Below are positions 667 through 43,139 of a DNA stretch of 52,958 nt, piece after piece. Position 1 is the first letter of the stretch, and every line of letters starts with the position of its first letter. This stretch comes from a virus: UHGV virus genome UHGV-0074814; one strand, 5' to 3'. Position numbers and translations under genes: made by a program. The notes under the pieces were generated by a model. That model made no database searches. It was not told the DNA's origin and saw only the letters and a list, made by a program, of their open reading frames with translations.

Positions 667-831
667 TTACATATTCTTGATGATCGCGTCACCAAACTCT
701 GAACATTTCAGCAGTTTAGCGCCCTCCATCAGACGTTCGAAGTCATAGGTTACGGTCTTGGCGTTGATTGCGCCTTCCATACCTTTAACAATCAGGTCAG
801 CCGCTTCAGTCCAACCCATATGGCGCAGCAT
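667..831 (-). pseudogene. icd: icd 3'-terminal fragment (copy 1, att-associated; last ~54 codons only)
   Basis: Minus-strand translation [54 protein letters not shown]-stop matches isocitrate dehydrogenase C-terminus; no upstream icd body. Confidence 0.8.
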
Positions 832-1689: not shown

Positions 1690-3579
1690 ATGAAATCCGA
1701 AACGCTAACCATCCAGCAAATTTTCCAAAATCAACGACAATATCGTGTTCCATTCTATCAACGTGCCTACGTATGGACGCAACGAAACCAATGGTCAGCT
1801 TTGTTGGAGGATATCTTCGAAAAAGCACAGAGCCGACTTTCGGGAACAAAACCAACCCCTCATTTCCTCGGCGCGGTGGTGCTGGAACCTCAACTCAAAA
1901 ACAGCTTGTTAGGTGTAGATACCATACATATTATTGACGGCCAGCAACGTTTAACCACTCTTCAATATATTCTGGCATCCATTCGATTATCATTGCGTGC
2001 TACAGGCCTTTCTGAACTGGAAGGGTTAGTATTGACTTGCTTGAAAAATACAAACGAAGCAACGATGAGAAATAAAAAGGTAGAATGCTTCAAACTGTGG
2101 CCAACTTTTCGAGATCAAACTCATTTTATTCAAAGTCTTAATGTTGATAATATTGACGATCTCCGTAATGTATTTTCTGATAGCTTCACGCAACATGGTA
2201 CGTTACGTAAACATTTCAACCACCCGCCGTCACTAGAGGCATTATGGTTTTTTACTGAAGCCTTTATAAAATGGATTAAAATAGAAAACCACTCACCACA
2301 AGAAAATGCTGTAGCACTAATTGAGGCTGTCTTGACGGATCTGAAACTGGTAAGCATATTTCTCGAAGCTGAAGATGATGCCCAAATAATTTTTGAAACA
2401 TTAAATGGGCGAGGAGCGGAACTTCATGCAACGGATCTTATTCGCAACTATATCTTTATGTGCGCTGAGCATGAAAATATTAATGCTATTGAATTATATG
2501 AAAATGAGTGGAAGATCTTTGAAGATAAATACTGGTCGGAAAAGCAACGCCGTGGACGTATTAATAAACCACGCATGGAGTGGCTTGTACATGCGACATT
2601 GCAATCAGAAAGGCAGCGTGAAATTGATCTGTCTCGCCTTTACAATGAGTATCGTGATTATGTAAGTAAGGACTTGCCTTCACAACGAGCAGATCTGCAA
2701 GTAAAGCGCCTCAAACAATATGCATCACAATATAAAGAATTGGTTGGTGGTTTTGGCACAACCCCCATCTCACACTTTGGACATCGCATCGCAGCCTATG
2801 ATGTGACGACACTCTATCCGCTTGCTTTGTTCATTTCGATAGCTAACATCGCCGATGATGAGAAAGCAGCCATGTATAATGATCTTGTCTCCTACGTAGT
2901 ACGAAGATCCGTATGTGGCCTGACGCCAAAGAATTACAACAATGTATTTATGAATGTATTGCGACACTTGTCTAAAACGGAAATTTCCAGTGTTGAGTTA
3001 CGTAATATCCTCAATAGCTTAAATGGCGAAGCCTCACGTTGGCCTGGGGACTCAGAATTTCTCAACGCTTGCATCAATGCTCCACTTTATCCTGGCAGGC
3101 TCGACGCACCGAAAATGCGCTCAATGTTAACGGAACTTGAAAGAGAACTTTGTCGCCAAGTGAAGACAGAAAAGCCTGATGTTCCAAATCTTTCTAATCT
3201 CGATATCGATCATCTTATGCCTCAAAGTTGGTATTCCTGTTGGCCTCTCGAAAATGGTCATATGGTGACAAATTCAGATGCTACGGTAATGAACCAAATT
3301 GTTCTGTCTGGAACCGATCTTACCCCTGAACAGCTACTGGTAAGGAAACGGCAACAAGCGATAGCTACGTTGGGAAATCTAACTTTGCTTAACCTTAGCG
3401 TAAACCGTTCCGTTCAGAATGCTGTATTTCTGAAAAAACGTGATGCTCTCATCGTCCACACCAATCTACGACTGAACATACCACTTATACTTAAGGATAA
3501 ATGGGATGAGAGTGAAATACAGGAGCGAGGTAAAAAGTTGGGGGAAATTGCATTGAAAGTATGGCCAAAATACGATTAA
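1690..3579 (+). CDS. DUF262/DUF1524 family protein, GmrSD-like type IV (modification-dependent) restriction endonuclease candidate
   Basis: N-terminal FYQRAYVW and IIDGQQRLTT (DUF262/ParB-like DGQQR motif); C-terminal DIDHLMPQS His-Me/HNH-like motif (DUF1524); SD AGGTAA 5 nt before ATG. Confidence 0.6.
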   Translation: MKSETLTIQQIFQNQRQYRVPFYQRAYVWTQRNQWSALLEDIFEKAQSRLSGTKPTPHFLGAVVLEPQLKNSLLGVDTIHIIDGQQRLTTLQYILASIRLSLRATGLSELEGLVLTCLKNTNEATMRNKKVECFKLWPTFRDQTHFIQSLNVDNIDDLRNVFSDSFTQHGTLRKHFNHPPSLEALWFFTEAFIKWIKIENHSPQENAVALIEAVLTDLKLVSIFLEAEDDAQIIFETLNGRGAELHATDLIRNYIFMCAEHENINAIELYENEWKIFEDKYWSEKQRRGRINKPRMEWLVHATLQSERQREIDLSRLYNEYRDYVSKDLPSQRADLQVKRLKQYASQYKELVGGFGTTPISHFGHRIAAYDVTTLYPLALFISIANIADDEKAAMYNDLVSYVVRRSVCGLTPKNYNNVFMNVLRHLSKTEISSVELRNILNSLNGEASRWPGDSEFLNACINAPLYPGRLDAPKMRSMLTELERELCRQVKTEKPDVPNLSNLDIDHLMPQSWYSCWPLENGHMVTNSDATVMNQIVLSGTDLTPEQLLVRKRQQAIATLGNLTLLNLSVNRSVQNAVFLKKRDALIVHTNLRLNIPLILKDKWDESEIQERGKKLGEIALKVWPKYD

Positions 3580-3601
3580 TGCAATTAATAAAATGATTAT
3601 A

Positions 3602-3625
3602 GCGGCCTTACATTAGTAAGGCCGC
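3602..3625. terminator. hairpin between convergent DUF262 gene and pin remnant (possible bidirectional terminator)
   Basis: Perfect 10-bp stem gcggccttac/gtaaggccgc with 4-nt loop; A/T-rich flanks. Confidence 0.4.
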
Positions 3626-3804
3626 AACTCACTATTAAATCCTTTAATTTGCATCAAGAACAGCACTGTCAGCCCTAGGCTCTCGGACTTTGTACCGCTT
3701 ATCTTGTCTTCAAAAATCAGCTCGCATCCTGCACAGTTCAACGCATTACGTTGTAGATCGATTTTCTGGTCATTTGTTGATACGCAAACATAGCCAATAA
3801 GCAT
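3613..3804 (-). pseudogene. truncated serine invertase (Pin/Gin/Hin family), N-terminal ~45 residues conserved then divergent
   Basis: MLIGYVCVSTNDQKIDLQRNAL matches invertase catalytic N-terminus (Ser in VSTNDQ); ORF only 64 aa versus ~185-190 aa; SD GAGGGAG before ATG at 3804. Confidence 0.65.
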
Positions 3805-3830
3805 GGTAGCTCCCTCTGACAAAAGCAGGA

Positions 3831-4220
3831 ATGATGCCATTTTCTCGTTATTTCTGCATTTTCATAAACGTTGGTTTGGGAGAATTATCTCTGGCTGGCA
3901 CTGCATCGGGTGTCATTGGTCTGAATGGGTATGTAACGATTCCGTTAATTATTTCAGGTTCCCGGAGAACACTGATTATTCAGTGGGGGCAGGCGAGATT
4001 TGGTGGGTCTGGTGGTGAAGATGCCGGATATCTTAATGATTTTCCTTTTGCCTTTCCGTCAGCATGTTATGGAATGATAGTTAGTCATGTGGGGCATACA
4101 CCTTCAGGCGCAGGAATCCTGTCGGCTTCTGCAATTACATCAAATCAGTTCCGCGGTTTTTCAAGCATAGCGACTGCTGCAAATGCTGTATTAGGTCGTT
4201 ATATCGCTATAGGGGGTTAA
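3831..4220 (+). CDS. alternative tail-fibre C-terminal variable segment (silent orientation)
   Basis: Gly/Ser-rich fibre-like sequence inside the invertible segment, opposite strand to the expressed fibre gene; true reading frame entry is at the crossover site. Confidence 0.4.
   Translation: MMPFSRYFCIFINVGLGELSLAGTASGVIGLNGYVTIPLIISGSRRTLIIQWGQARFGGSGGEDAGYLNDFPFAFPSACYGMIVSHVGHTPSGAGILSASAITSNQFRGFSSIATAANAVLGRYIAIGG
3859..3884. repeat. invertase crossover site (gix/pix-like), left arm of invertible tail-fibre segment
   Basis: ttttcataaacgttggtttgggagaa; its reverse complement resembles site at 5389-5414 and the Mu gix core pattern AAACC-N-GTTT. Confidence 0.5.
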
Positions 4221-4221
4221 T

Positions 4222-4659
4222 ATGTTTTATAGTCCATCATTAAACATTTTTGTGAATCCTGCGCTTAAGGATGATTACATTAATGCAAATTCATGGCCAG
4301 ATGATGCTCTGGCTGTCAGTGATGATGTTTATAATGAATTTGCAATCAATACGCCCCCATATGACAAAATTCGTGTTGCAGGAAAAAATGGATTACCCAC
4401 ATGGGCACTAATACCTCCACCATCGCATGAAGAACTTATTCAACAGGCAGAATCAGAAAGGCAATTATTGCTTAATCAGGCCAACGAATACATGAACAGT
4501 AAACAATGGCCCGGTAAAGCCGCTATTGGTCGTCTGAAAGACGAGGAACTGGCACTATATAATTTGTGGCTGGATTACCTGGACGCACTGGAACTGGTGG
4601 ATACCTCCAGTGCTCCAGATATTGAATGGCCTACACCTCCGGTAACTCAGGCCAGCTAA
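4222..4659 (+). CDS. tail fibre assembly protein (alternative copy, silent orientation)
   Basis: C-terminus LVDTSSAPDIEWPTPPV matches conserved Tfa C-terminal motif VDTSTAPDIEWP. Confidence 0.6.
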   Translation: MFYSPSLNIFVNPALKDDYINANSWPDDALAVSDDVYNEFAINTPPYDKIRVAGKNGLPTWALIPPPSHEELIQQAESERQLLLNQANEYMNSKQWPGKAAIGRLKDEELALYNLWLDYLDALELVDTSSAPDIEWPTPPVTQAS

Positions 4660-5026
4660 TCTCAGGAGCCGTCGAAGTGTCGACGGCTTTTACTTCTTTT
4701 TTGTAGTCCATCCAGGCGGATAGTTTTTCTTTATCTGTACTGCTGATATCACCAAGCATTAATTCCACTCGCCAGTCAGCTGTGACATTATCGGCATGAG
4801 CAAGTAACTGCATTCGCTGATTTTCAGCACGTGCGACATAATCAATCGCCGGAGATTTCAGTACCGGTAAACCATTTTCATCTGACGTGATTAATTTACC
4901 CCCTTCCTGCTGTCCGGCAATTAATTCATTGTATAAGTCTGTACTTATCTCAACAATGTCAGCAGGCATGTCGCTGTTTATACCATCAAAGAAAAAACCA
5001 TTAGTCGATTTTGAGAAATAAATCAT
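4631..5026 (-). CDS. tail fibre assembly protein (expressed orientation)
   Basis: C-terminus AVDTSTAPEISWPELPEV matches Tfa motif; follows the tail fibre gene; start taken at the ATG (MIYFSK) at 5026 instead of the upstream non-ATG start of the ORF track. Confidence 0.6.
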   Translation of the reverse strand: MIYFSKSTNGFFFDGINSDMPADIVEISTDLYNELIAGQQEGGKLITSDENGLPVLKSPAIDYVARAENQRMQLLAHADNVTADWRVELMLGDISSTDKEKLSAWMDYKKEVKAVDTSTAPEISWPELPEV

Positions 5027-5034
5027 AGATATAC

Positions 5035-5691
5035 CTATACACCGATTGCTACCCAAAAACAGGACCTTTCATATTTGACAATTTCTCCCTGAGATATACC
5101 GCCAACAATTATATAGAACTGTGATTTGGTGATATCAGAACAGTTCGCAATGCCCATTGCAGATATACCCGCCACCGACGTTGTATGTGGTACAGCCAAC
5201 AGCGCAAGTGAACGACTTGGGAATGTTACCGGGTAAGTCACCGTATAGTTTGATGCTCCACTGACTATACCCCACTGAATAATCAGACCTGAAGGGAGTT
5301 TTTGAAAACCCGTTGATGAAAGTGAACTGGCAAACGCCGCCATATCCGGAATTTGGTTTTGCTCGTTACCCACATTTCGTTTTGCCGCTTCTCTCAAACC
5401 AAGGTTTTGAAGAGCCGTTTTCACCGTGCCGTCCGATTTGATATCGCCAAACGGATTTTTGCGACTTAACAGCAGCGCACGAAGCGCGGTAAGCAGCTGG
5501 TCATGCCGCCCCTTCTCCAGGCTGGCACCGGATGCCTCCACCACGCTGCAGAGCTCTTCCTGCAACATGTCAAAGTAGTCATCATCCAGATCGGTGGCAG
5601 GCGTGCCGGTCTGGGGGTTACCACGGGTAAAACCGTTCTTACCCGCGCCGAACTTATCCTTCTGCGCGGTTTTCGTGTCTATACGATGCAT
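5035..5691 (-). CDS. tail fibre protein (Mu S / e14 Stf-like) with constant N-terminus and invertible C-terminus
   Basis: Position after baseplate genes; crossover site at 5389-5414 lies inside the gene; followed by Tfa. Confidence 0.55.
5389..5414. repeat. invertase crossover site, right arm, inside tail fibre gene
   Basis: ttctctcaaaccaaggttttgaagag is an inverted near-copy of 3859-3884. Confidence 0.5.
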
Positions 5692-5694
5692 GGA

Positions 5695-6279
5695 TTACTC
5701 CGGATATTTAAAAATTACGTAGGTATGCGACGGGCAGAGTTTGTTAAGCACACATTCGACAACTGTGTCGCCCCAGATACGCAGTGCGGAATCACAGGGA
5801 TCGCCACATGTCATCCAGGTGGTGTTGGTGGCGGCTGGCATGTTGACCTGCCAGTAATACCGCCATTCAGGCGCGTTCACAGCGTCAGTACAGGCCGATG
5901 AGCAGGTGAACGTGCTTTTGTCGTATCGCGTGATAGTGGCATCTGGTCTGCCCAGGGCAGCAAGCTGTGCAAGATAAAAATCCTCGTTGATGCCGCCCGC
6001 CAGGTTAACCTTCGCATCCAGCCGTTGCTGACGCTGGCGAAGGGTCTGTGTCCCTGCGGGAATACATTCATCCGGCAGACCGCACAGACGCTCCCAGCGG
6101 TTTATCAGTTCAGTGGTGGTGCGCGGATCCAGCTCCCGCATCAGGGCATCCGCACGCTGATGAACGCGGGATAATGACGGTGCCGCACCGGCAATCGCCG
6201 GATCGCTGGCTGACCACGCCGGACCGGGGGGCAACAGTGCCGACAACAGACGGATGTAATCATCGTTTGTCACGTCCAT
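5695..6279 (-). CDS. Mu gp48-like tail protein (DUF2313; YmfQ-like)
   Basis: 194 aa, position after baseplate J gene; length and order match Mu-type baseplate module. Confidence 0.5.
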
Positions 6280-23542: not shown

Positions 23543-23836
23543 ATGAAAAAAATGTTGTTTTCTGCCGCTCTGGCAATGCTTATTACAGGATGTGCTCAAC
23601 AGACGTTTACTGTTGGAAACAAACCTACAGCAGTAACACCAAAGGAAACCATCACCCATCATTTCTTCGTTTCGGGAATTGGGCAGAAGAAAACTGTCGA
23701 TGCAGCAAAAATTTGTGGTGGTGCAGAAAATGTTGTTAAAACAGAAACCCAGCAAACATTCGTAAATGGATTGCTCGGTTTTATTACTTTAGGCATTTAT
23801 ACTCCGCTGGAAGCGCGTGTGTATTGCTCACAATAA
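23543..23836 (+). CDS. bor: Bor-family lipoprotein (serum resistance protein)
   Basis: MKKMLFSAALAMLITGCAQ lipobox signal and near-identity to lambda Bor as recalled; opposite strand to lysis genes as in lambda; SD AGGA. Confidence 0.8.
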   Translation: MKKMLFSAALAMLITGCAQQTFTVGNKPTAVTPKETITHHFFVSGIGQKKTVDAAKICGGAENVVKTETQQTFVNGLLGFITLGIYTPLEARVYCSQ

Positions 23837-25423: not shown

Positions 25424-26599
25424 ATGGATATAACTTGTTTAGAATGTGGCAATGTTCTTGACGACCCAACTGTAGCTTGCGATAAATGCGGTGCCACGCC
25501 TCATGTTGTAGTGCTGGGCAAACAATCGTACTTTCCTATTGGTGCTGTAACAGCAAATCTTGAAAAAAATGATTCAAGAGCATTTGATTATCGATTAGGT
25601 GAAGTTTGGGATCTAAAAAATGAAGTCACATCTGAATTCATAACCAGAATTGAGAAAAAATTTAGCCGAAAAAACAAATTTCATAACTTCCTAGACTCAG
25701 ATCACAACCCTTCATCCATTCCTACGATCCTAAAAAAATACATTAATAAAAATAATGAATTCATTGATTTATCTAGAGCTATAATAGAGAAGCTTAAACA
25801 TAATGCTAATAACGAATCGAGAGTTGCCCAACTTCAGGGGGGGAGCGTTGTTTTCATCCACTATAAGTCTACCGAACCAGAGGATTTGGGGAAACTTCTA
25901 ATCGTAATGGTTGATAAACAAAGCGCCTATGACTTTGATTCGGATAAGTTGACCCCAACAAGATTAAATCCAATTAATACCGATGCCTTACGGCAGGCTG
26001 CGATGTTCGATTTAACTTTATTCGAAGCCAGTTATCCAGAAAACAAGGGTGACTCATATGTACATTTCTTGCAAGGTAAATCTAAAAGCGATTTTTTCAA
26101 AGACTCATTAGGTTGCCGACATGATTCGGACAATAAAAGAAGCATTCAGCAATTATTCAGTGCTATAGATATTTTTGCTAGTAAAAACTCACTCGGTCGT
26201 GTACTGCGTGATACTATTGACAATGAAGTTAAATCCTTACTGGAAAAAAAATCAAAAGATAAACACGGAAATAAGTCCGTTAAGATAGAGGATATTTCAA
26301 AAATAATTGACTCATGCCTGACTGATTCACACAAATGTAAGGGAACGTTTGTCGATTTTGTTAATCTTAATGGTTTCCAGATTGACCCTCAATTTGAACC
26401 AACTCCTAAAGCAGCTGAAAGCGCGCTTACAATTGAAGTGGCAGATAACGACAATAATTTTAAGTTGAAAATAATGCGTGGAGCTATTGGAGACGAAAAG
26501 TCAAATAAGCCTGTAATTCTCACTGACAACAAATGCGAAATTGTGATAAAATTGAGTCAGGCAAATTATGATGAACTCAAAAGATATAGAGACAGCTAA
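25424..26599 (+). CDS. zinc-ribbon protein with NdpA/YejK-like (NA37 nucleoid-associated) domain; candidate defence component A
   Basis: N-terminal CLECG-N10-CDKCG zinc ribbon; central GGSVVFIHY...YVHFLQGKSKSDFFKDSLGC resembles YejK GGIVLFCHY...[23 protein letters not shown]; AT-rich relative to flanks. Confidence 0.5.
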   Translation: MDITCLECGNVLDDPTVACDKCGATPHVVVLGKQSYFPIGAVTANLEKNDSRAFDYRLGEVWDLKNEVTSEFITRIEKKFSRKNKFHNFLDSDHNPSSIPTILKKYINKNNEFIDLSRAIIEKLKHNANNESRVAQLQGGSVVFIHYKSTEPEDLGKLLIVMVDKQSAYDFDSDKLTPTRLNPINTDALRQAAMFDLTLFEASYPENKGDSYVHFLQGKSKSDFFKDSLGCRHDSDNKRSIQQLFSAIDIFASKNSLGRVLRDTIDNEVKSLLEKKSKDKHGNKSVKIEDISKIIDSCLTDSHKCKGTFVDFVNLNGFQIDPQFEPTPKAAESALTIEVADNDNNFKLKIMRGAIGDEKSNKPVILTDNKCEIVIKLSQANYDELKRYRDS

Positions 26600-26601
26600 T
26601 A

Positions 26602-27816
26602 ATGACAATTGCTGATGACTTATCAAGATTAGCGCAGATTATTAACGGAGCCTCAAGCAGAGTTGAGGGCTACTACACTGTCATAAGTCTTGAAGAAAGC
26701 ATTGTTATTGTAAATAGTTCTGAAATAATTAGACTGTTACAATCTATAGGTTATAAAAAGGCAACAACCTGCATCGAAAATAATGAAATTTGGCTAGATC
26801 GCCAAGCTTCATCTTGGGATGATGCTATAATTTATGAGAATGTTGAGTCTTTTTGGTCTAGAGTAAACACCCAAAACGCTCTTCCGAAAAATTATATCAT
26901 CGGAACGCCGTTAATACTCCCTACTTCTAAGAATGAAAGCATCGAAAAAATCCATATTTTCTTTATGTGGAAAGATATCCTTTCATTAATTTCTGATCAT
27001 CATAACAGTGACTGCTCTGTCTTATTTTTCACCAATGAAGACAAAAGTTATACAGTCGAACTCACGCATTTTTTACAATATAGCGAGATTAATCGCTTAT
27101 CGAACTCGTCTCTTAAATATGAAATTATAAAGGAGCTTCTCGACACAATAAAAATCAATGATTTACACAAAAGCGAGCGCAAGCTCGTTATACGCTCAGC
27201 CATAAACGAAGTATTTAAAGCAAATGGTACGTTCAATTTCTTTGACTTGCTTAACTCTACTGAACTCGTCAGGAAAAAATATGATGAACTATATGAGATT
27301 TACACAAAGAGGTTTTCTGTAAATAAAATTCTTAACGAACTCGATGAGAAAAATCTTGAGTTCACGAGTAAAATTAACGAATTCATATCATCTAATCAGA
27401 CAAAAGCATTGACTATTCCCGGTGCATTAATAGCAGCTGGTGGCTTAGTGAAGGCTAATGAAACAACCGAAGCAATATTGATTATCGCAGGACTTTGGAT
27501 GATAAAAAAAGTCAATTACATTTCTATTGAGATATTCAATGAAACATTCGACAACTTACGTTCTCGAGTGGAGTCCGCTTTCGATAAGTATTTAAAGTTT
27601 GAAGAAAATAAAGAAATCAAAGATAATGCAGATAGTATTAAGAGTAGCATTACAGGTTTGATTGATAAAGCTAAAAAAAGGATGAGAACTGTTAAATATC
27701 TCGCATCAGCCATGTTTTATGGAGGCCTTATTTACGTTGGATATAAACAGTTCCCAGTCTTTTTTGAAAAATCGGCAGTAAATCTATTTTATTTTTTATG
27801 CCATACTATAAGCTAA
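26602..27816 (+). CDS. membrane protein with two C-terminal TM helices; candidate defence component B (effector?)
   Basis: Starts 3 nt after the stop of the upstream gene; hydrophobic segments ALTIPGALIAAGGLV...AILIIAGLWMI and YLASAMFYGGLIYVGY. Confidence 0.5.
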   Translation: MTIADDLSRLAQIINGASSRVEGYYTVISLEESIVIVNSSEIIRLLQSIGYKKATTCIENNEIWLDRQASSWDDAIIYENVESFWSRVNTQNALPKNYIIGTPLILPTSKNESIEKIHIFFMWKDILSLISDHHNSDCSVLFFTNEDKSYTVELTHFLQYSEINRLSNSSLKYEIIKELLDTIKINDLHKSERKLVIRSAINEVFKANGTFNFFDLLNSTELVRKKYDELYEIYTKRFSVNKILNELDEKNLEFTSKINEFISSNQTKALTIPGALIAAGGLVKANETTEAILIIAGLWMIKKVNYISIEIFNETFDNLRSRVESAFDKYLKFEENKEIKDNADSIKSSITGLIDKAKKRMRTVKYLASAMFYGGLIYVGYKQFPVFFEKSAVNLFYFLCHTIS

Positions 27817-39403: not shown

Positions 39404-40519
39404 TTAAATTAAATCAAATAGCCCATGTTCATCTATAGCCTTTGAACTAATTAAGTTCGCGGCTTCTATGTCATTGTCACTTGCCTCAGAAATAAGGAAA
39501 AATGAATCAACATGATTTTGCAAAATAATTTCCTTATACTTCTTGAGCCATTGTAATTTACCTGTAGTGAACAATACTTTACGCGGTAGCAAAATACGGC
39601 TAAAAACTGATGGAAGATACTCACTTCTATTAAATGGAATAAAAGGGTCGCCTAAAGAAAGAATAGTTAGACGATTAAATTCACCGTGCGAATTCAATTT
39701 TTCAGCTGATTTGGCTATACCACTTGGTAAAAAAACACCTGTCTTGATACCGTTGCGTAAAGCAACAACAGCCATCATTTTATCAAAGGCAGTACCTCCA
39801 AATAATAAGGAATATCCTTTTTTAACAGAAAGATCAATAGTATCAAGAACAACTTGTTTTTCTATATCACTTGGTGACGTGCTCGAAATTATCGAAAGAT
39901 CAAAATCAGTAAATAACTGCCCAGTATAATAAAGATTTTTGCCGGTGAAAGTTGACAACTTTAAAGGAAACATTTTATCATCATGCTTAATTTCAGATAC
40001 ATTAAGATCTGTTAAGGATGGATAGTTAAAGTTTGGTGAGGCTTTTCCGTGTTTATTATTTTTTGATGCCTGCGGACTAAAAACTAGAATTTCATTTTTA
40101 TTATTACACAGGTAATCCTGTATCATTTTTTTTACAATATCCCAATCAAGACCACCGTGACCACAACCTAAAGCTGGCAGGGTGATTGTTTTTCCATGTT
40201 TATTATCCAAATATTTCGAGAGCCAATGCAGTCCTTTTTCGATATATTCGTACTTAGACTTATTTCTCCAATGATCCTTGGTGGGAAAGTTTATGATTTC
40301 TATTTCCTTACCATACGTATCATTACCTTTCCAAACAGCTGGTCTTCCTGGAGATATTTCTCCTTTTTTACACAGCAATACGTATTCATTATACATTTCA
40401 GGAAACTTATTCTTAAAAGCAAAAGCAACCCCTGCCCCCATTACACCAACACAATTAACTGTATTAATTCTAATGTCAGCAGCATAATCGAAAAAATCAC
40501 CATCAACATATCTAATCAT
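39404..40519 (-). CDS. macro-domain protein (DarG/TARG1-like) with C-terminal Rossmann-like domain; candidate antitoxin
   Basis: GDFFDYAADIRINTVNCVGVMGAGVAFAFKNKFPEMY and ALGCGHGGLDW macro motifs; start set at ATG with SD AAGGAGG (ORF track extends to 40645); AT-rich. Confidence 0.55.
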   Translation of the reverse strand: MIRYVDGDFFDYAADIRINTVNCVGVMGAGVAFAFKNKFPEMYNEYVLLCKKGEISPGRPAVWKGNDTYGKEIEIINFPTKDHWRNKSKYEYIEKGLHWLSKYLDNKHGKTITLPALGCGHGGLDWDIVKKMIQDYLCNNKNEILVFSPQASKNNKHGKASPNFNYPSLTDLNVSEIKHDDKMFPLKLSTFTGKNLYYTGQLFTDFDLSIISSTSPSDIEKQVVLDTIDLSVKKGYSLLFGGTAFDKMMAVVALRNGIKTGVFLPSGIAKSAEKLNSHGEFNRLTILSLGDPFIPFNRSEYLPSVFSRILLPRKVLFTTGKLQWLKKYKEIILQNHVDSFFLISEASDNDIEAANLISSKAIDEHGLFDLI

Positions 40520-40991
40520 AAAACCTCCTTTGGTCAGAGTATACATCCTTATTTCTGGCTCTTCAATTCTATTGTCAAAAACTTTTACAAAGTCTGCATC
40601 AGTAAAACTGATGGCGCATTTTAAAATTAAAATCAATATGTCCATATCAAACGTTATATTTGTTATTTTTTGTATTTATTATTCATATCCATCATGTGCT
40701 ATTAAATCGCCCAAAAGAACATAATAAATTATGTGCACCACTTTCTTCTTATTGAATTTTGGATTACATTACGATCTAAATTAGATCTTTTGCCAATATC
40801 ATAAACATATGCAGCAAACGTTGCAACAAGCTGTTCTCATTCTAACAGTTAGTAGAATATAAACTCTGTAATTAGCACACTGAATTCCCTTCATCTATGA
40901 GTTACAACATCCTTTAAGTGAATAGTATTGTTAGTTTAAATCTATTAATATCATTCATAAAACTATTTTATATAGTTAAAGTCATTATAAA

Positions 40992-41015
40992 TCCATCTGA
41001 ATATATACAGATGGA
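40992..41015. promoter_or_regulatory. perfect palindrome TCCATCTG-N8-CAGATGGA in intergenic spacer (candidate operator)
   Basis: 8-bp inverted arms with 8-bp AT spacer, read directly. Confidence 0.3.
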
Positions 41016-41226
41016 TTCTGCCAATAGTCTTTGCAGGTGAAGTGCATGTTATATATTTTTTAGGGAATATATTTTCTAATTATTTCTCAGATAAAAATTT
41101 GCAGAACGAAATTACTTTACATAATACCGAATGTTACAGATTATTTTATTGCATATAAGCATTGAACTAACCACTATCACAGTGACTATGTTAATCATAA
41201 AATCTGCATCAAATTCAAAAAGCTCC

Positions 41227-42573
41227 TCATAAACTGTTCCCCTGCAATCTTTGGAGAACTTCATCCCGGAGATCATCGATCCCGTCAGAAACCTGAGCTA
41301 ACCAAACTTGACTTAATGAGCCAATATCAGCCTTACTTAGGGCTACTAACATATTGATATCTTCAGAAGATGTAACTATATCGAACAACTGATTTTTATT
41401 CCTCCCTTTAGCTACTATTTCCCCCAATAAATCATCATACGTAACTAACATCATTATTTTTCTAACTAGATCGGTTTGTATGACTGGCAGATCTTCTGTC
41501 AAAATTCGTTGTAGCATCGCAAGTGACTTCCTAGGATGCTCTCCATCTGCCTCATGCATGTAATTATTATTCCAACGTGTTTTAGGCCCTTTGCCTATAT
41601 CATGCAAATAAGCGGCCAACTCCAAAACTTCCTGATGAATAGAGTCTAATTGATAAAACTCTGGTGAATTAACTACAAGACTAGCCACTCGTCGACTATG
41701 AGAGCCAACATCTTCATTATGAGGCCCGTAGCTCGTCCCCAATCCATCGATATCTTCAAGCTCTTGGATGGAGGAGAAATTACCACGAATTGCACTTAGA
41801 GCATCACTAATACTTTGAAATTTTGGCCTCGTTTCTCGTTGAAATGAAGTTACATATTCAATAGCTTCATCAAAAAGCATTTTTAACACTACCGGTCCCG
41901 TGACTAAGGATGAGGACCAGTTTCCAGGTTGATAATAATAATGTTGAAAATCACCCTCAACAATATTTGGTGGAACAATACCTTTGTTCTGGAAAATACT
42001 CCTCACAATATCAGACATAGAACGATTCCATGTAATTATCTGATTTATTTCGCTTAAAGAGACATGATCTGGCAGCAAAAGTTCTGCCATCTTTTTATGC
42101 CTCTGAGTCTCGTCAGCATAACCCCATGCATTATTATCTATGGTAGCCCAATCTAATACATCAAGCTGGTCAGCTTGAGTATTACCAGAATAAAAGTTCG
42201 GTGGATTAACTGTATTTGCGGAAGCATCTGTAAAATATGACCCATTCCTTGTTTCGAGTGATAATATAGAAACTGAAAGATAGATAATAAATTGCTGATC
42301 TACATTTTTTTTATGAAGAACAGACAATTGCATGGGCGTTTTTTTTGCAAAATAAAAAGGAACATAATCATGAACACAACGACCATTCGTATTAGGCACC
42401 TGCATCACTGCCCTACGCCCCTGTATTCCTTCATCAGCAACATTCACATGTGATATACGACGTGCAATTTTCTGATTAGTCGAAAACAGCCCAGTTTCAA
42501 TTATTGATTCAAGATTATCTACTGACGTAAAGTGATATGCATTTCGGTGTCTATGGTGAACAGGAACTGTCAT
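41227..42573 (-). CDS. DarT-like (DUF4433) ADP-ribosyltransferase domain fused to HD phosphohydrolase domain; candidate toxin
   Basis: N-terminal YHFTSVDNLESIIETGL, HDYVPFYF and YFTDASA resemble DarT; C-terminal HSRRVASLVV...LAAYLHDIGK is an HD motif; SD GGGGGA; AT-rich. Confidence 0.5.
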   Translation of the reverse strand: MTVPVHHRHRNAYHFTSVDNLESIIETGLFSTNQKIARRISHVNVADEGIQGRRAVMQVPNTNGRCVHDYVPFYFAKKTPMQLSVLHKKNVDQQFIIYLSVSILSLETRNGSYFTDASANTVNPPNFYSGNTQADQLDVLDWATIDNNAWGYADETQRHKKMAELLLPDHVSLSEINQIITWNRSMSDIVRSIFQNKGIVPPNIVEGDFQHYYYQPGNWSSSLVTGPVVLKMLFDEAIEYVTSFQRETRPKFQSISDALSAIRGNFSSIQELEDIDGLGTSYGPHNEDVGSHSRRVASLVVNSPEFYQLDSIHQEVLELAAYLHDIGKGPKTRWNNNYMHEADGEHPRKSLAMLQRILTEDLPVIQTDLVRKIMMLVTYDDLLGEIVAKGRNKNQLFDIVTSSEDINMLVALSKADIGSLSQVWLAQVSDGIDDLRDEVLQRLQGNSL

Positions 42574-42951: not shown

Positions 42952-42974
42952 AATAGATTTAACAAATCACGATA

Positions 42975-43139
42975 TTACATATTCTTGATGATCGCATCAC
43001 CAAATTCTGAACATTTCAGCAGTTTAGCACCTTCCATCAGACGTTCGAAGTCATAGGTTACGGTCTTCGCGTTGATTGCGCCTTCCATACCTTTAACAAT
43101 CAGGTCTGCGGCTTCAGTCCAACCCATATGGCGCAGCAG
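42975..43139 (-). pseudogene. icd: icd 3'-terminal fragment (copy 2, attL-side)
   Basis: Translation [54 protein letters not shown]-stop; ~9 mismatches vs copy 1 over 165 bp. Confidence 0.8.

Follow-up and report, generated by a model that had tools for sequence, protein, structure and literature searches.

Known invertible segments

The G segment of phage Mu is inverted by Gin, an active invertase that the phage itself encodes, acting at 26-bp sites with a central dinucleotide; the enhancer lies in the 5′ end of the invertase gene, and the segment carries alternative S/U-type fibre and chaperone genes. The C segment of P1, inverted by Cin, shares the resident active invertase, the 26-bp sites, and the alternative fibre genes. 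The Fis sites of the enhancer are spaced 48 bp apart. In Salmonella, the H segment undergoes a comparable Fis- and enhancer-dependent serine invertase reaction, catalyzed by an intact Hin, but the switched element is a flagellin-gene promoter, not a set of fibre coding cassettes (PMC3798978). The Hin enhancer is 65 bp long and lies ~100 bp from hixL, and wild-type Hin is inactive without it (PMC3798978). Fin of Fels-2 is described, in work cited in PMC12529663, as acting in trans on Hin sites, which is a precedent for a second prophage-borne enzyme.

In Escherichia coli K-12, the P region of e14 (stfP-tfaP / tfaE-stfE, followed by pinE and mcrA) swaps a fibre C-terminus together with its Tfa. 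PinQ and PinR of the Qin and Rac prophages invert this segment in trans, natural genomes with the segment in both orientations have been reported, and complete deletion of pinE in K-12 leaves the segment locked (PMC12529663). Resident PinE is intact in K-12, where trans action is an addition; at the locus described here, trans action would be the sole route.

A P-type segment in a complete e14-family prophage

The window (the whole stretch of DNA analyzed, 52,958 bp of virus genome UHGV-0074814) contains a complete e14-family prophage of ~38 kb, inserted at icd, in which every structural gene is annotated. Membership in the family is indicated by integration at icd with a duplicated icd 3′ remnant (667 to 831), by synteny with K-12 e14 (ymfQ, stfP, tfaP, tfaE, stfE, pinE, type IV restriction gene, icd remnant), and by further e14-type genes (ymfR, ymfL, ymfI, and an intE-type integrase). 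From ~5370 through the baseplate genes (to 7400), the sequence is ~96 to 97% identical to Shigella phages SfV, SfII, SfIV, and SfI. The locus shares the icd site, the gene order, the pin-proximal crossover site, and the principle of swapping a fibre C-terminus and its Tfa with the P region of K-12 e14. It differs in that the prophage is complete, the cassettes are others, pin is cut after ~49 codons, and a GmrSD-family enzyme replaces McrA. The Mu gix site and the gin 5′ region also align with the window, although the Mu fibres are long and its cassettes are unrelated in sequence. An earlier sequence-only reading had recognized an arrangement of the Mu G / e14 P type, and this comparison bears it out. 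The features of the locus are as follows.

1690 to 3579, plus strand: GmrSD-family type IV restriction gene (GmrSD_N and GmrSD_C; PADLOC mREase_IV, 1523 bits, full length)
3602 to 3625: GC-rich hairpin between the GmrSD gene and the pin stub
3613 to 3807, minus strand: stub of pin (serine DNA invertase), a 64-aa ORF starting MLIGY
3720 to 3782: candidate Fis-dependent recombinational enhancer inside the pin stub
3859 to 3884, minus strand: pin-proximal crossover site (pix), 26 bp, central dinucleotide 3871-3872
3885 to 4220, plus strand: alternative fibre C-terminal cassette, silent in the window orientation (Gp53-like_C)
4222 to 4659, plus strand: Tfa gene of the silent cassette (Caudo_TAP, E 1.8e-33)
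4631 to 5026, minus strand: Tfa gene of the expressed cassette (Caudo_TAP, E 1.8e-24)
5035 to 5388, minus strand: expressed fibre C-terminal cassette (Gp53-like_C, within the 218-aa fibre ORF running 5691 to 5035)
5389 to 5414, plus strand: distal crossover site (pix), 26 bp, within the fibre gene, central dinucleotide 5401-5402
5415 to 5691, minus strand: constant N-terminal part of the tail-fibre gene, which stays in place and joins either cassette

The two crossover sites have the form found in serine-invertase switches, being inverted, ~26 bp long, and imperfectly palindromic around the same central dinucleotide. Read on the minus strand from 3884 to 3859, the pin-proximal site is TTCTCCCAAACC-AA-CGTTTATGAAAA, and the distal site (5389 to 5414) is TTCTCTCAAACC-AA-GGTTTTGAAGAG. 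An inverted-repeat search detected the pair 3866-3884 / 5389-5407, and the pattern TTCTCNCAAACCAANGTTT has exactly two matches in the 52,958-bp window, namely, these two sites on opposite strands (0.02 expected by chance). The crossover-like sites proposed from the sequence are therefore real. The pin-proximal site matches its pinE-proximal counterpart in K-12 e14 at every base and can be aligned with Mu gix.

Between the sites lie two alternative fibre C-termini, each with its own Tfa gene, and the constant N-terminus lies outside, as expected of a host-range cassette. The earlier description of alternative C-termini with two convergent Tfa genes holds (Gp53-like_C and Caudo_TAP were each found twice; the Tfa genes overlap by 29 nt). 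That description also had both Tfa proteins ending in a common motif; an approximate motif is present in both, but it lies near rather than at the C-terminus and differs between the two proteins, which end in ...VDTSSAPDIEWPTPPVTQAS and ...VDTSTAPEISWPELPEV. The fibre is in frame in either orientation: in silico inversion fuses the silent cassette to the constant part to give a 212-aa fibre (versus 218 aa in the window), and the annotations of strains 22-250 and MS1657 contain this fusion. An ORF that starts from a separate ATG at 3831 crosses the pin-proximal site and continues into the silent cassette (3885 to 4220). Promoter and terminator scans of positions 3450 to 5800 returned nothing useful, with fewer promoter-like matches than in shuffled sequence.

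The resident invertase gene is a stub that retains an enhancer-like element

The pin gene has been reduced to its 5′ end. Homology to pinE is confined to 3658 to 3807 (codons 1 to 49), where residues 1 to 49 match PinE at 75% identity (3804 to 3658) before the sequence diverges and stops. Alignment of the 64-aa product to PinE thus confirms the truncation, which had been placed after about 45 codons. Pfam finds only positions 2 to 54 of the 145 of Resolvase; the stub has neither the remainder of the catalytic domain nor helix E nor the DNA-binding domain, so that the complete small serine invertase expected beside such a switch (Resolvase catalytic domain plus C-terminal helix-turn-helix) is lacking. 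What remains has Cys in place of Arg7, a position of the conserved YVRVST motif that precedes the catalytic serine by two residues. The remaining parts of PinE are not encoded in any frame of the 52,958-bp window, which answers the proviso that the gene might be full length in another frame. RefSeq annotates the stub as a recombinase pseudogene with a missing C-terminus. The stub is presumably unable to make an active enzyme. A function for the 64-aa peptide itself was considered and rejected, because the stub of a diverged allele is frameshifted. The GmrSD gene adjoins the stub and occupies the position of mcrA in K-12 e14; the missing part of pin presumably disappeared with the arrival of the GmrSD cassette.

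Over its first ~140 bp, pin is ~90% identical to K-12 pinE (counted from the alignment), and this stretch includes two 15-bp Fis-like cores, TATCAACAAATGACC (3768 to 3782) and GTGCAGGATGCGAGC (3720 to 3734). The cores are 48 bp apart center to center, and the proximal core lies 96.5 bp from the center of the pin-proximal crossover site; K-12 pinE and Mu gin have both cores in identical or almost identical form. In size and distance to the site, the candidate enhancer agrees with that of Hin (PMC3798978). Fis would be expected to bind at 3720 to 3782, judging from this likeness, although the conserved YVRVSTNDQ coding sequence may account for part of the conservation at the DNA level.

Genomes with the same stub carry both orientations

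The identical pin stub/GmrSD junction was found in 289 of 5,426 complete E. coli genomes, and a diverged allele shares the same stub breakpoint. Among the stub genomes with the cassette pair of the window, 11 carry the segment in the window orientation and 7 in the opposite one. Over 9.4 kb, the only difference between the sister isolates 22-245 and 22-250 is an exact inversion of 3885 to 5388; the locus has identical chromosome coordinates in both, and their chromosome lengths are 5 bp apart. MS1657 likewise corresponds to the window with the segment inverted (100% identity to the in silico flipped window over 2,401 bp), and this comparison places the crossover within 8 bp, TTGGTTTG/CAAACCAA, at 3871 to 3878 of the pin-proximal and 5395 to 5402 of the distal site. 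In the two pairs compared directly, the crossover is confined to 14 and 8 bp, each interval including the central dinucleotide. In a second cassette group, of the ST95 type, orientation varies as well (UTI89 and S88 on one side, IHE3034 and APEC O1 on the other), with 24 flipped stub-type genomes versus at least 40 in the other orientation. Genome comparison therefore indicates that the segment has actually inverted, with exchange at the site center.

These distributions bear on the proposal of the sequence-only reading that truncation of pin locked the switch, fixing the segment in one orientation. Such a dead switch would be expected from a stub with little of the catalytic domain, none of the DNA-binding domain, and Arg7→Cys, with other invertases absent from the window. 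It would also fit the several carriers that have no detectable chromosomal PinE- or PinR-type sequence, and near-identical clones, such as GN06489 and GN06758, that share an orientation. At the level of the allele, however, it is already contradicted, since two cassette groups each include both orientations with identical stub alleles, sister isolates differ only by the inversion, and both crossover sites and the enhancer-like element are intact; we consider a dead switch improbable. The orientation differences could instead have arisen by RecA-dependent homologous recombination between short inverted repeats, and the inner half-sites do form an inverted repeat of 14 to 19 bp. Repeats of such length, however, fall below the need of efficient RecA recombination, yet flips separate sister isolates, and the cassettes contain a perfect inverted repeat of 17 bp (3972-3988 / 5270-5286) that was not used. 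The flipped genomes, moreover, each align without interruption to a query inverted at the site centers, in keeping with the narrow crossover intervals around the central dinucleotide. We give RecA very little chance of being the cause.

It is similarly far-fetched, in our assessment, that both orientations are older than the truncation or were imported, through independent truncations of pin in each orientation or through segments copied by homologous recombination from pin+ e14-like prophages. Prophage regions do recombine, and these cassettes also occur, in both orientations, in e14-like prophages whose pinE is intact. Nevertheless, all carriers, the diverged allele included, share one breakpoint and one flanking GmrSD sequence, which points to a single truncation event, and identical haplotypes are seen in both orientations. 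The full identity of MS1657 to the flipped window and the matching coordinates and near-equal chromosome lengths of 22-245 and 22-250 also argue against import.

Candidate invertases in trans

Invertase sequences elsewhere in the genomes were sought with chimeric queries (a DUF262 anchor joined to the 3′ part of pinE or to pinR) in the 5,426 genomes, counting only invertase-like places. The pinE chimera matched 4,791 of 5,426 genomes and the pinR chimera 3,110 of 5,426; the anchor alone explains only 296 of the genome matches. In the cassette group of the window, all seven flipped genomes have at least one PinE- or PinR-type sequence, and the four genomes lacking one are all in the window orientation (4/11 versus 0/7 without; one-sided P ≈ 0.11, not significant). 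Strains in which the count gave no other invertase include A42, S87, A8, and FDAARGOS_1295. Among the flipped ST95-type genomes, the chimeric queries found no chromosomal PinE- or PinR-type sequence in four (EC9682, GN06489, GN06758, and PMV-1), and the association between flipping and invertases is thus not general; these four flips need either past invertases that have since been lost or enzymes that the search missed. Of the complete genomes, none covers the right half of the window in full; VTB96929v and MS1657 come closest, at 85% coverage. A lambdoid prophage next to the locus in VTB96929v has no annotated invertase.

Complete deletion of pinE in K-12, which locks the P segment, also removes the enhancer region. 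The lock may be a consequence of the missing enhancer, still present in the natural stub, and the contrast between the engineered deletion and the stub points to the enhancer at the start of pin as the element whose survival matters.

Proposed mechanism and implications

This locus is the P-type invertible segment of a complete e14-family prophage at icd whose own pin has been reduced to a stub, and we think it likely that the segment flips by means of Pin-family invertases acting in trans. Given the enhancer-homologous sequence retained in the stub, trans inversion by other Pin-family invertases is the best explanation. The possibility, raised from the sequence, that an enzyme of the Pin/Gin/Hin family from another element inverts the segment is the reading that the evidence favors, with the trans step itself deduced. 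The 3′ two-thirds of pin are missing; both 26-bp sites and the first ~150 bp of pin, with the enhancer-homologous sequence, survive. Under the proposed mechanism, an invertase of the Pin family, encoded by a different prophage or by a plasmid, would bind both crossover sites, assemble with Fis on the retained enhancer, cut at the central AA/TT dinucleotide, rotate, and religate, thereby swapping the fibre C-terminus and Tfa chaperone behind the constant fibre N-terminus. Trans inversion still works probably because the retained stub covers this cis-acting element, a point absent from the sequence-only reading. Without any such invertase, the segment would stay frozen in its last orientation, and this is probably the state of the switch in genomes that have no other invertase.

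A more tentative extension, which we regard as possible but doubtful, is that the 150-bp pin stub is kept for its Fis enhancer and that the locus is an orphan switch wholly dependent on invertases of co-resident prophages or plasmids. If this were true, the choice of fibre would be set by other mobile elements in the cell and would freeze on their loss. The StfE2-like fragment encoded by the ORF from 3831 might likewise depend on those elements, assuming that it acts as its K-12 counterpart is reported to, by blocking phage adsorption.

As a member of a known switch system, the locus is ordinary and degenerate, and its mechanistic weight is small, the parts and the chemistry being textbook. 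It does provide a natural example of a phase-variable locus of one prophage relying on the enzyme of another element. The stub allele occurs in ~5% of complete E. coli genomes, and UTI89, S88, APEC O1, and IHE3034, all reference strains, are among its carriers; the fibre segment of these carriers should not be assumed to be fixed in genome comparison or inversion calling.

The slot beside pin is variable, holding, by strain, mcrA or a GmrSD gene (both type IV restriction) or a gene for a LEM-3-like GIY-YIG protein. Exchange of nuclease genes in this slot can damage the neighboring recombinase.

The invertase gene at the prophage end is truncated

A prophage integrated at icd terminates at the left end of the window, where the following genes lie:

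667-831, minus strand: icd 3' remnant
1690-3579, plus strand: GmrSD-family gene, 629 aa
3807->3613, minus strand: short ORF with an invertase-like N-terminus

Beyond this short ORF (the stub; 64 aa, the remainder of the pin serine-invertase gene) are two convergent sets of fibre C-terminus and Tfa genes, followed by the rest of the fibre gene, ymfQ and Mu-type baseplate genes, all of them on the minus strand. Around the segment the genes follow the order seen in K-12 prophage e14 (ymfQ, stfP, tfaP, tfaE, stfE, pinE, mcrA, icd remnant), and identity to Shigella phages SfV, SfII, SfIV and SfI is 96-97% over the fibre base and baseplate. RefSeq genomes identical over 3400-5800 carry the same annotated series as the window (DUF262 protein, recombinase pseudogene without its C-terminus, gp53-like, two tail-fibre assembly proteins, gp53-like, YmfQ, and baseplate J). 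In VTB96929v the whole element spans ∼38 kb and is a seemingly complete prophage, with genes for integrase, excisionase, regulators, lysis, terminase, portal, capsid, sheath, tube and baseplate.

Aligned to PinE, the e14 invertase, the stub product matched residues 1-49, with an Arg7->Cys substitution. No further PinE-like sequence was found in any frame of the window, and Pfam recovered no more of the Resolvase domain than its first third, confirming the truncation proposed from the sequence alone. The pin homology breaks off near 3658 and gives way to a hairpin rich in GC (3602-3625) and then to the 629-aa gene, which is convergent with the stub and encodes a full-length GmrSD-family type IV (modification-dependent) restriction enzyme (GmrSD_N and GmrSD_C; PADLOC mREase_IV, 1523 bits) found in 296 complete E. 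coli genomes. This prophage-end slot holds GmrSD in the window, mcrA in K-12 e14 and a LEM-3-like GIY-YIG gene in UPEC-245U; judging from the alignment, gene exchange in the slot likely took away the 3' two-thirds of pin. Of 5,426 complete E. coli genomes, 289 carry a 321-bp junction comprising the GmrSD 3' end, the hairpin and the entire stub. Because FDAARGOS_1295 carries a diverged copy that breaks off at the same point and also has a 1-bp frameshift, the comparison indicates a single old truncation event followed by decay.

Crossover sites and fibre cassettes are intact

In 53 kb the core site pattern has exactly two matches, one per strand, at 3859-3884 (pin-proximal) and 5389-5414 (distal), versus 0.02 occurrences expected; the two inverted crossover sites described earlier are therefore real and not due to chance. 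Each site, read as a 26-mer, has AA at its centre; the pin-proximal one is identical to that of K-12 e14 and aligns with Mu gix. The cargo was also as the sequence-only reading described it, domain searches finding two Gp53-like_C fibre C-termini and two Caudo_TAP chaperones; the ending motif it quoted for the Tfa products held only approximately. The window orientation gives a fibre of 218 aa, made of the constant part and 5035-5388, with the Tfa gene at 4631-5026; after in silico inversion, a 212-aa fibre with the 3885-4220 cassette is paired with the Tfa gene at 4222-4659. The two fibre cassettes also contain a perfect 17-bp inverted repeat (3972-3988 / 5270-5286), which encodes a shared LIIQWG motif. 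Within the pin-pix spacer the "silent" cassette (3831-4220, plus strand) has an ATG of its own, and a CDS of 128-135 aa is annotated for it in either orientation; the analogy of K-12 StfE2 (PMC12529663) suggests that such a fragment might be produced and serve a separate function.

Stub-carrying genomes occur in both orientations

The segment had been read as locked by the truncation. Comparison of assembled genomes did not bear this out: stub-bearing genomes occur in both orientations, in two cassette groups. The window's cassette pair was in the window orientation in 11 stub-carrying genomes, and 7 more matched, end to end and in one piece, a flipped query (the sequence predicted for exchange at the site centres, built in silico and then searched against genomes), MS1657 with 100% identity. 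Chicken-meat isolates 22-245 and 22-250, from the same place (chromosomes of 5,073,334 and 5,073,329 bp; identical pseudogene coordinates), are identical across 9.4 kb save for an exact inversion of 3885-5388. The window's two inner half-sites differ by one base, which in MS1657 had travelled with the segment while the outer half-sites were unmoved, placing the exchange point within TTGGTTTG (3871-3878) / CAAACCAA (5395-5402), an 8-bp interval that includes the central dinucleotide. The second group, an ST95-type ExPEC lineage, carries the same stub with one orientation in UTI89, S88 and NU14 (at least 40 genomes among the matches listed) and the other in IHE3034, APEC O1 and 22 more (100% coverage versus the in silico flip). 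Given both orientations with the same stub in two groups, the sister pair and the mapped crossover, we infer that the segment has gone through repeated inversion since the truncation of pin, with exchange at the site centres in the manner of a serine invertase.

This polymorphism contradicts a dead switch, in which truncation ended inversion, but in individual carriers the segment may well be frozen; GN06489 and GN06758, two near-identical clones, have a common orientation, which is what a frozen switch would give. RecA recombination between short inverted repeats is unlikely, since every junction lies at the site centres and the 17-bp repeat inside the cassettes left no trace of use as an inversion junction among the genomes examined. 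Nor do independent truncations, or import of flipped segments, fit a single breakpoint common to carriers and identical haplotypes found in both orientations. By its sites, cargo and inversion, the locus belongs, as had been proposed, to the e14 P / Mu G class, from which it derives and like which it works; it lacks a resident complete invertase and is a degenerate member of that class, with a candidate enhancer recognized by homology only.

A trans-acting invertase and a retained enhancer may explain inversion

The stub presumably cannot provide the enzyme, so the activity would have to be supplied from elsewhere. Extra invertase-like places were counted per chromosome using chimeric queries, in which the GmrSD (DUF262) gene served as anchor for the pinE 3' part or for pinR. 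These queries matched 4,791 and 3,110 of 5,426 genomes, respectively, of which the anchor alone explains just 296; by this measure, trans-acting enzymes appear to be common in E. coli genomes. In the window's group, 7/7 flipped genomes had at least one extra place on the chromosome, and none was detected on those of A42, S87, A8 and CFSAN061769, all in the window orientation; the association of orientation with invertase in these counts is suggestive only. Isolates 22-245 and 22-250 have two PinE-type and one PinR-type places. The same queries found no PinE- or PinR-type sequence on the chromosomes of flipped ST95-type genomes EC9682, GN06489, GN06758 and PMV-1, for which we assume an ancestral flip or a plasmid-borne or undetected enzyme. 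PinQ and PinR, invertases of K-12 prophages Qin and Rac, act in trans to invert the P segment of e14, which natural genomes carry in both states (PMC12529663); by analogy, this supports a trans model for the stub-carrying locus. We propose that an invertase encoded elsewhere would flip the segment in trans, the stub being unable to make one, and that an enhancer kept in the stub would let this invertase act on the two sites.

In known enhancers, Fis sites are spaced 48 bp apart. The stub contains two 15-bp Fis-like cores with this spacing, the nearer 96.5 bp from the site centre; both are the same or nearly the same in K-12 pinE and Mu gin, and pin is truncated 60 bp past them. By homology, then, the stub retains a candidate Fis-bound enhancer. 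Invertases of this family need more in cis than their two sites: the wild-type enzymes show no activity unless a 65-bp enhancer bound by Fis is present, located in Salmonella ∼100 bp from hixL (PMC3798978); in Mu it lies within the invertase gene, according to the title of Kahmann et al. (1985). In a K-12 pinE deletion mutant, the P segment is reported to be locked although PinQ and PinR are present (PMC12529663). Because whole-gene deletion takes the enhancer region too, we read this as a contrast with the natural stub, favouring the enhancer as the part that would matter for trans inversion.

Trans inversion of e14 by PinQ/PinR is already known, as is cross-complementation among Pin, Gin, Cin and Hin, and the pseudogene is annotated in RefSeq. 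The addition here is comparative evidence that a common stub allele still flips, with the suggestion that the kept enhancer explains why.

Other features of the integrated elements

A second icd 3' remnant at 42957-43138 shares the orientation of the 640-840 copy, to which it is 93.5% identical. The repeated remnant suggests that several elements are stacked in tandem where phages attach at icd: the e14-like prophage, a DarTG islet, and then sitABCD with a lambdoid prophage. The islet, immediately beyond the prophage integrase, has a DarG-like macro-domain gene (39404-40645, minus strand) and a DarT gene with an extra HD domain (41227-42573, minus strand). The slot outside the integrase (39404-42573) varies, holding a Sll1717-family P-loop ATPase in VTB96929v and DarT with a macro-domain gene in S87. 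Between the lysis genes and the Q antiterminator, two genes (25424-27816, plus strand) run opposite to their neighbours; one encodes an NA37-family nucleoid-associated protein (391 aa), the 404-aa product of the other had no Pfam or PADLOC match, and the two look like a moron or candidate accessory pair. The gene for iss, a bor-like serum-survival lipoprotein, is present in the e14-like prophage (∼23543-23833) and in the neighbouring lambdoid prophage (VTB96929v 2921000-2970000).

About 260 bp upstream of the GmrSD gene, within a small ORF (1356-1670), is a perfect tandem array of the octamer CCCACCAA (1368-1433). The window has 8 copies, VTB96929v and MS1657 have 6 each, and 22-245 and FDAARGOS_1295 have fewer than 3. 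As the unit length is not divisible by three, the reading frame moves when the copy number changes, and the array may be a slipped-strand contingency repeat.
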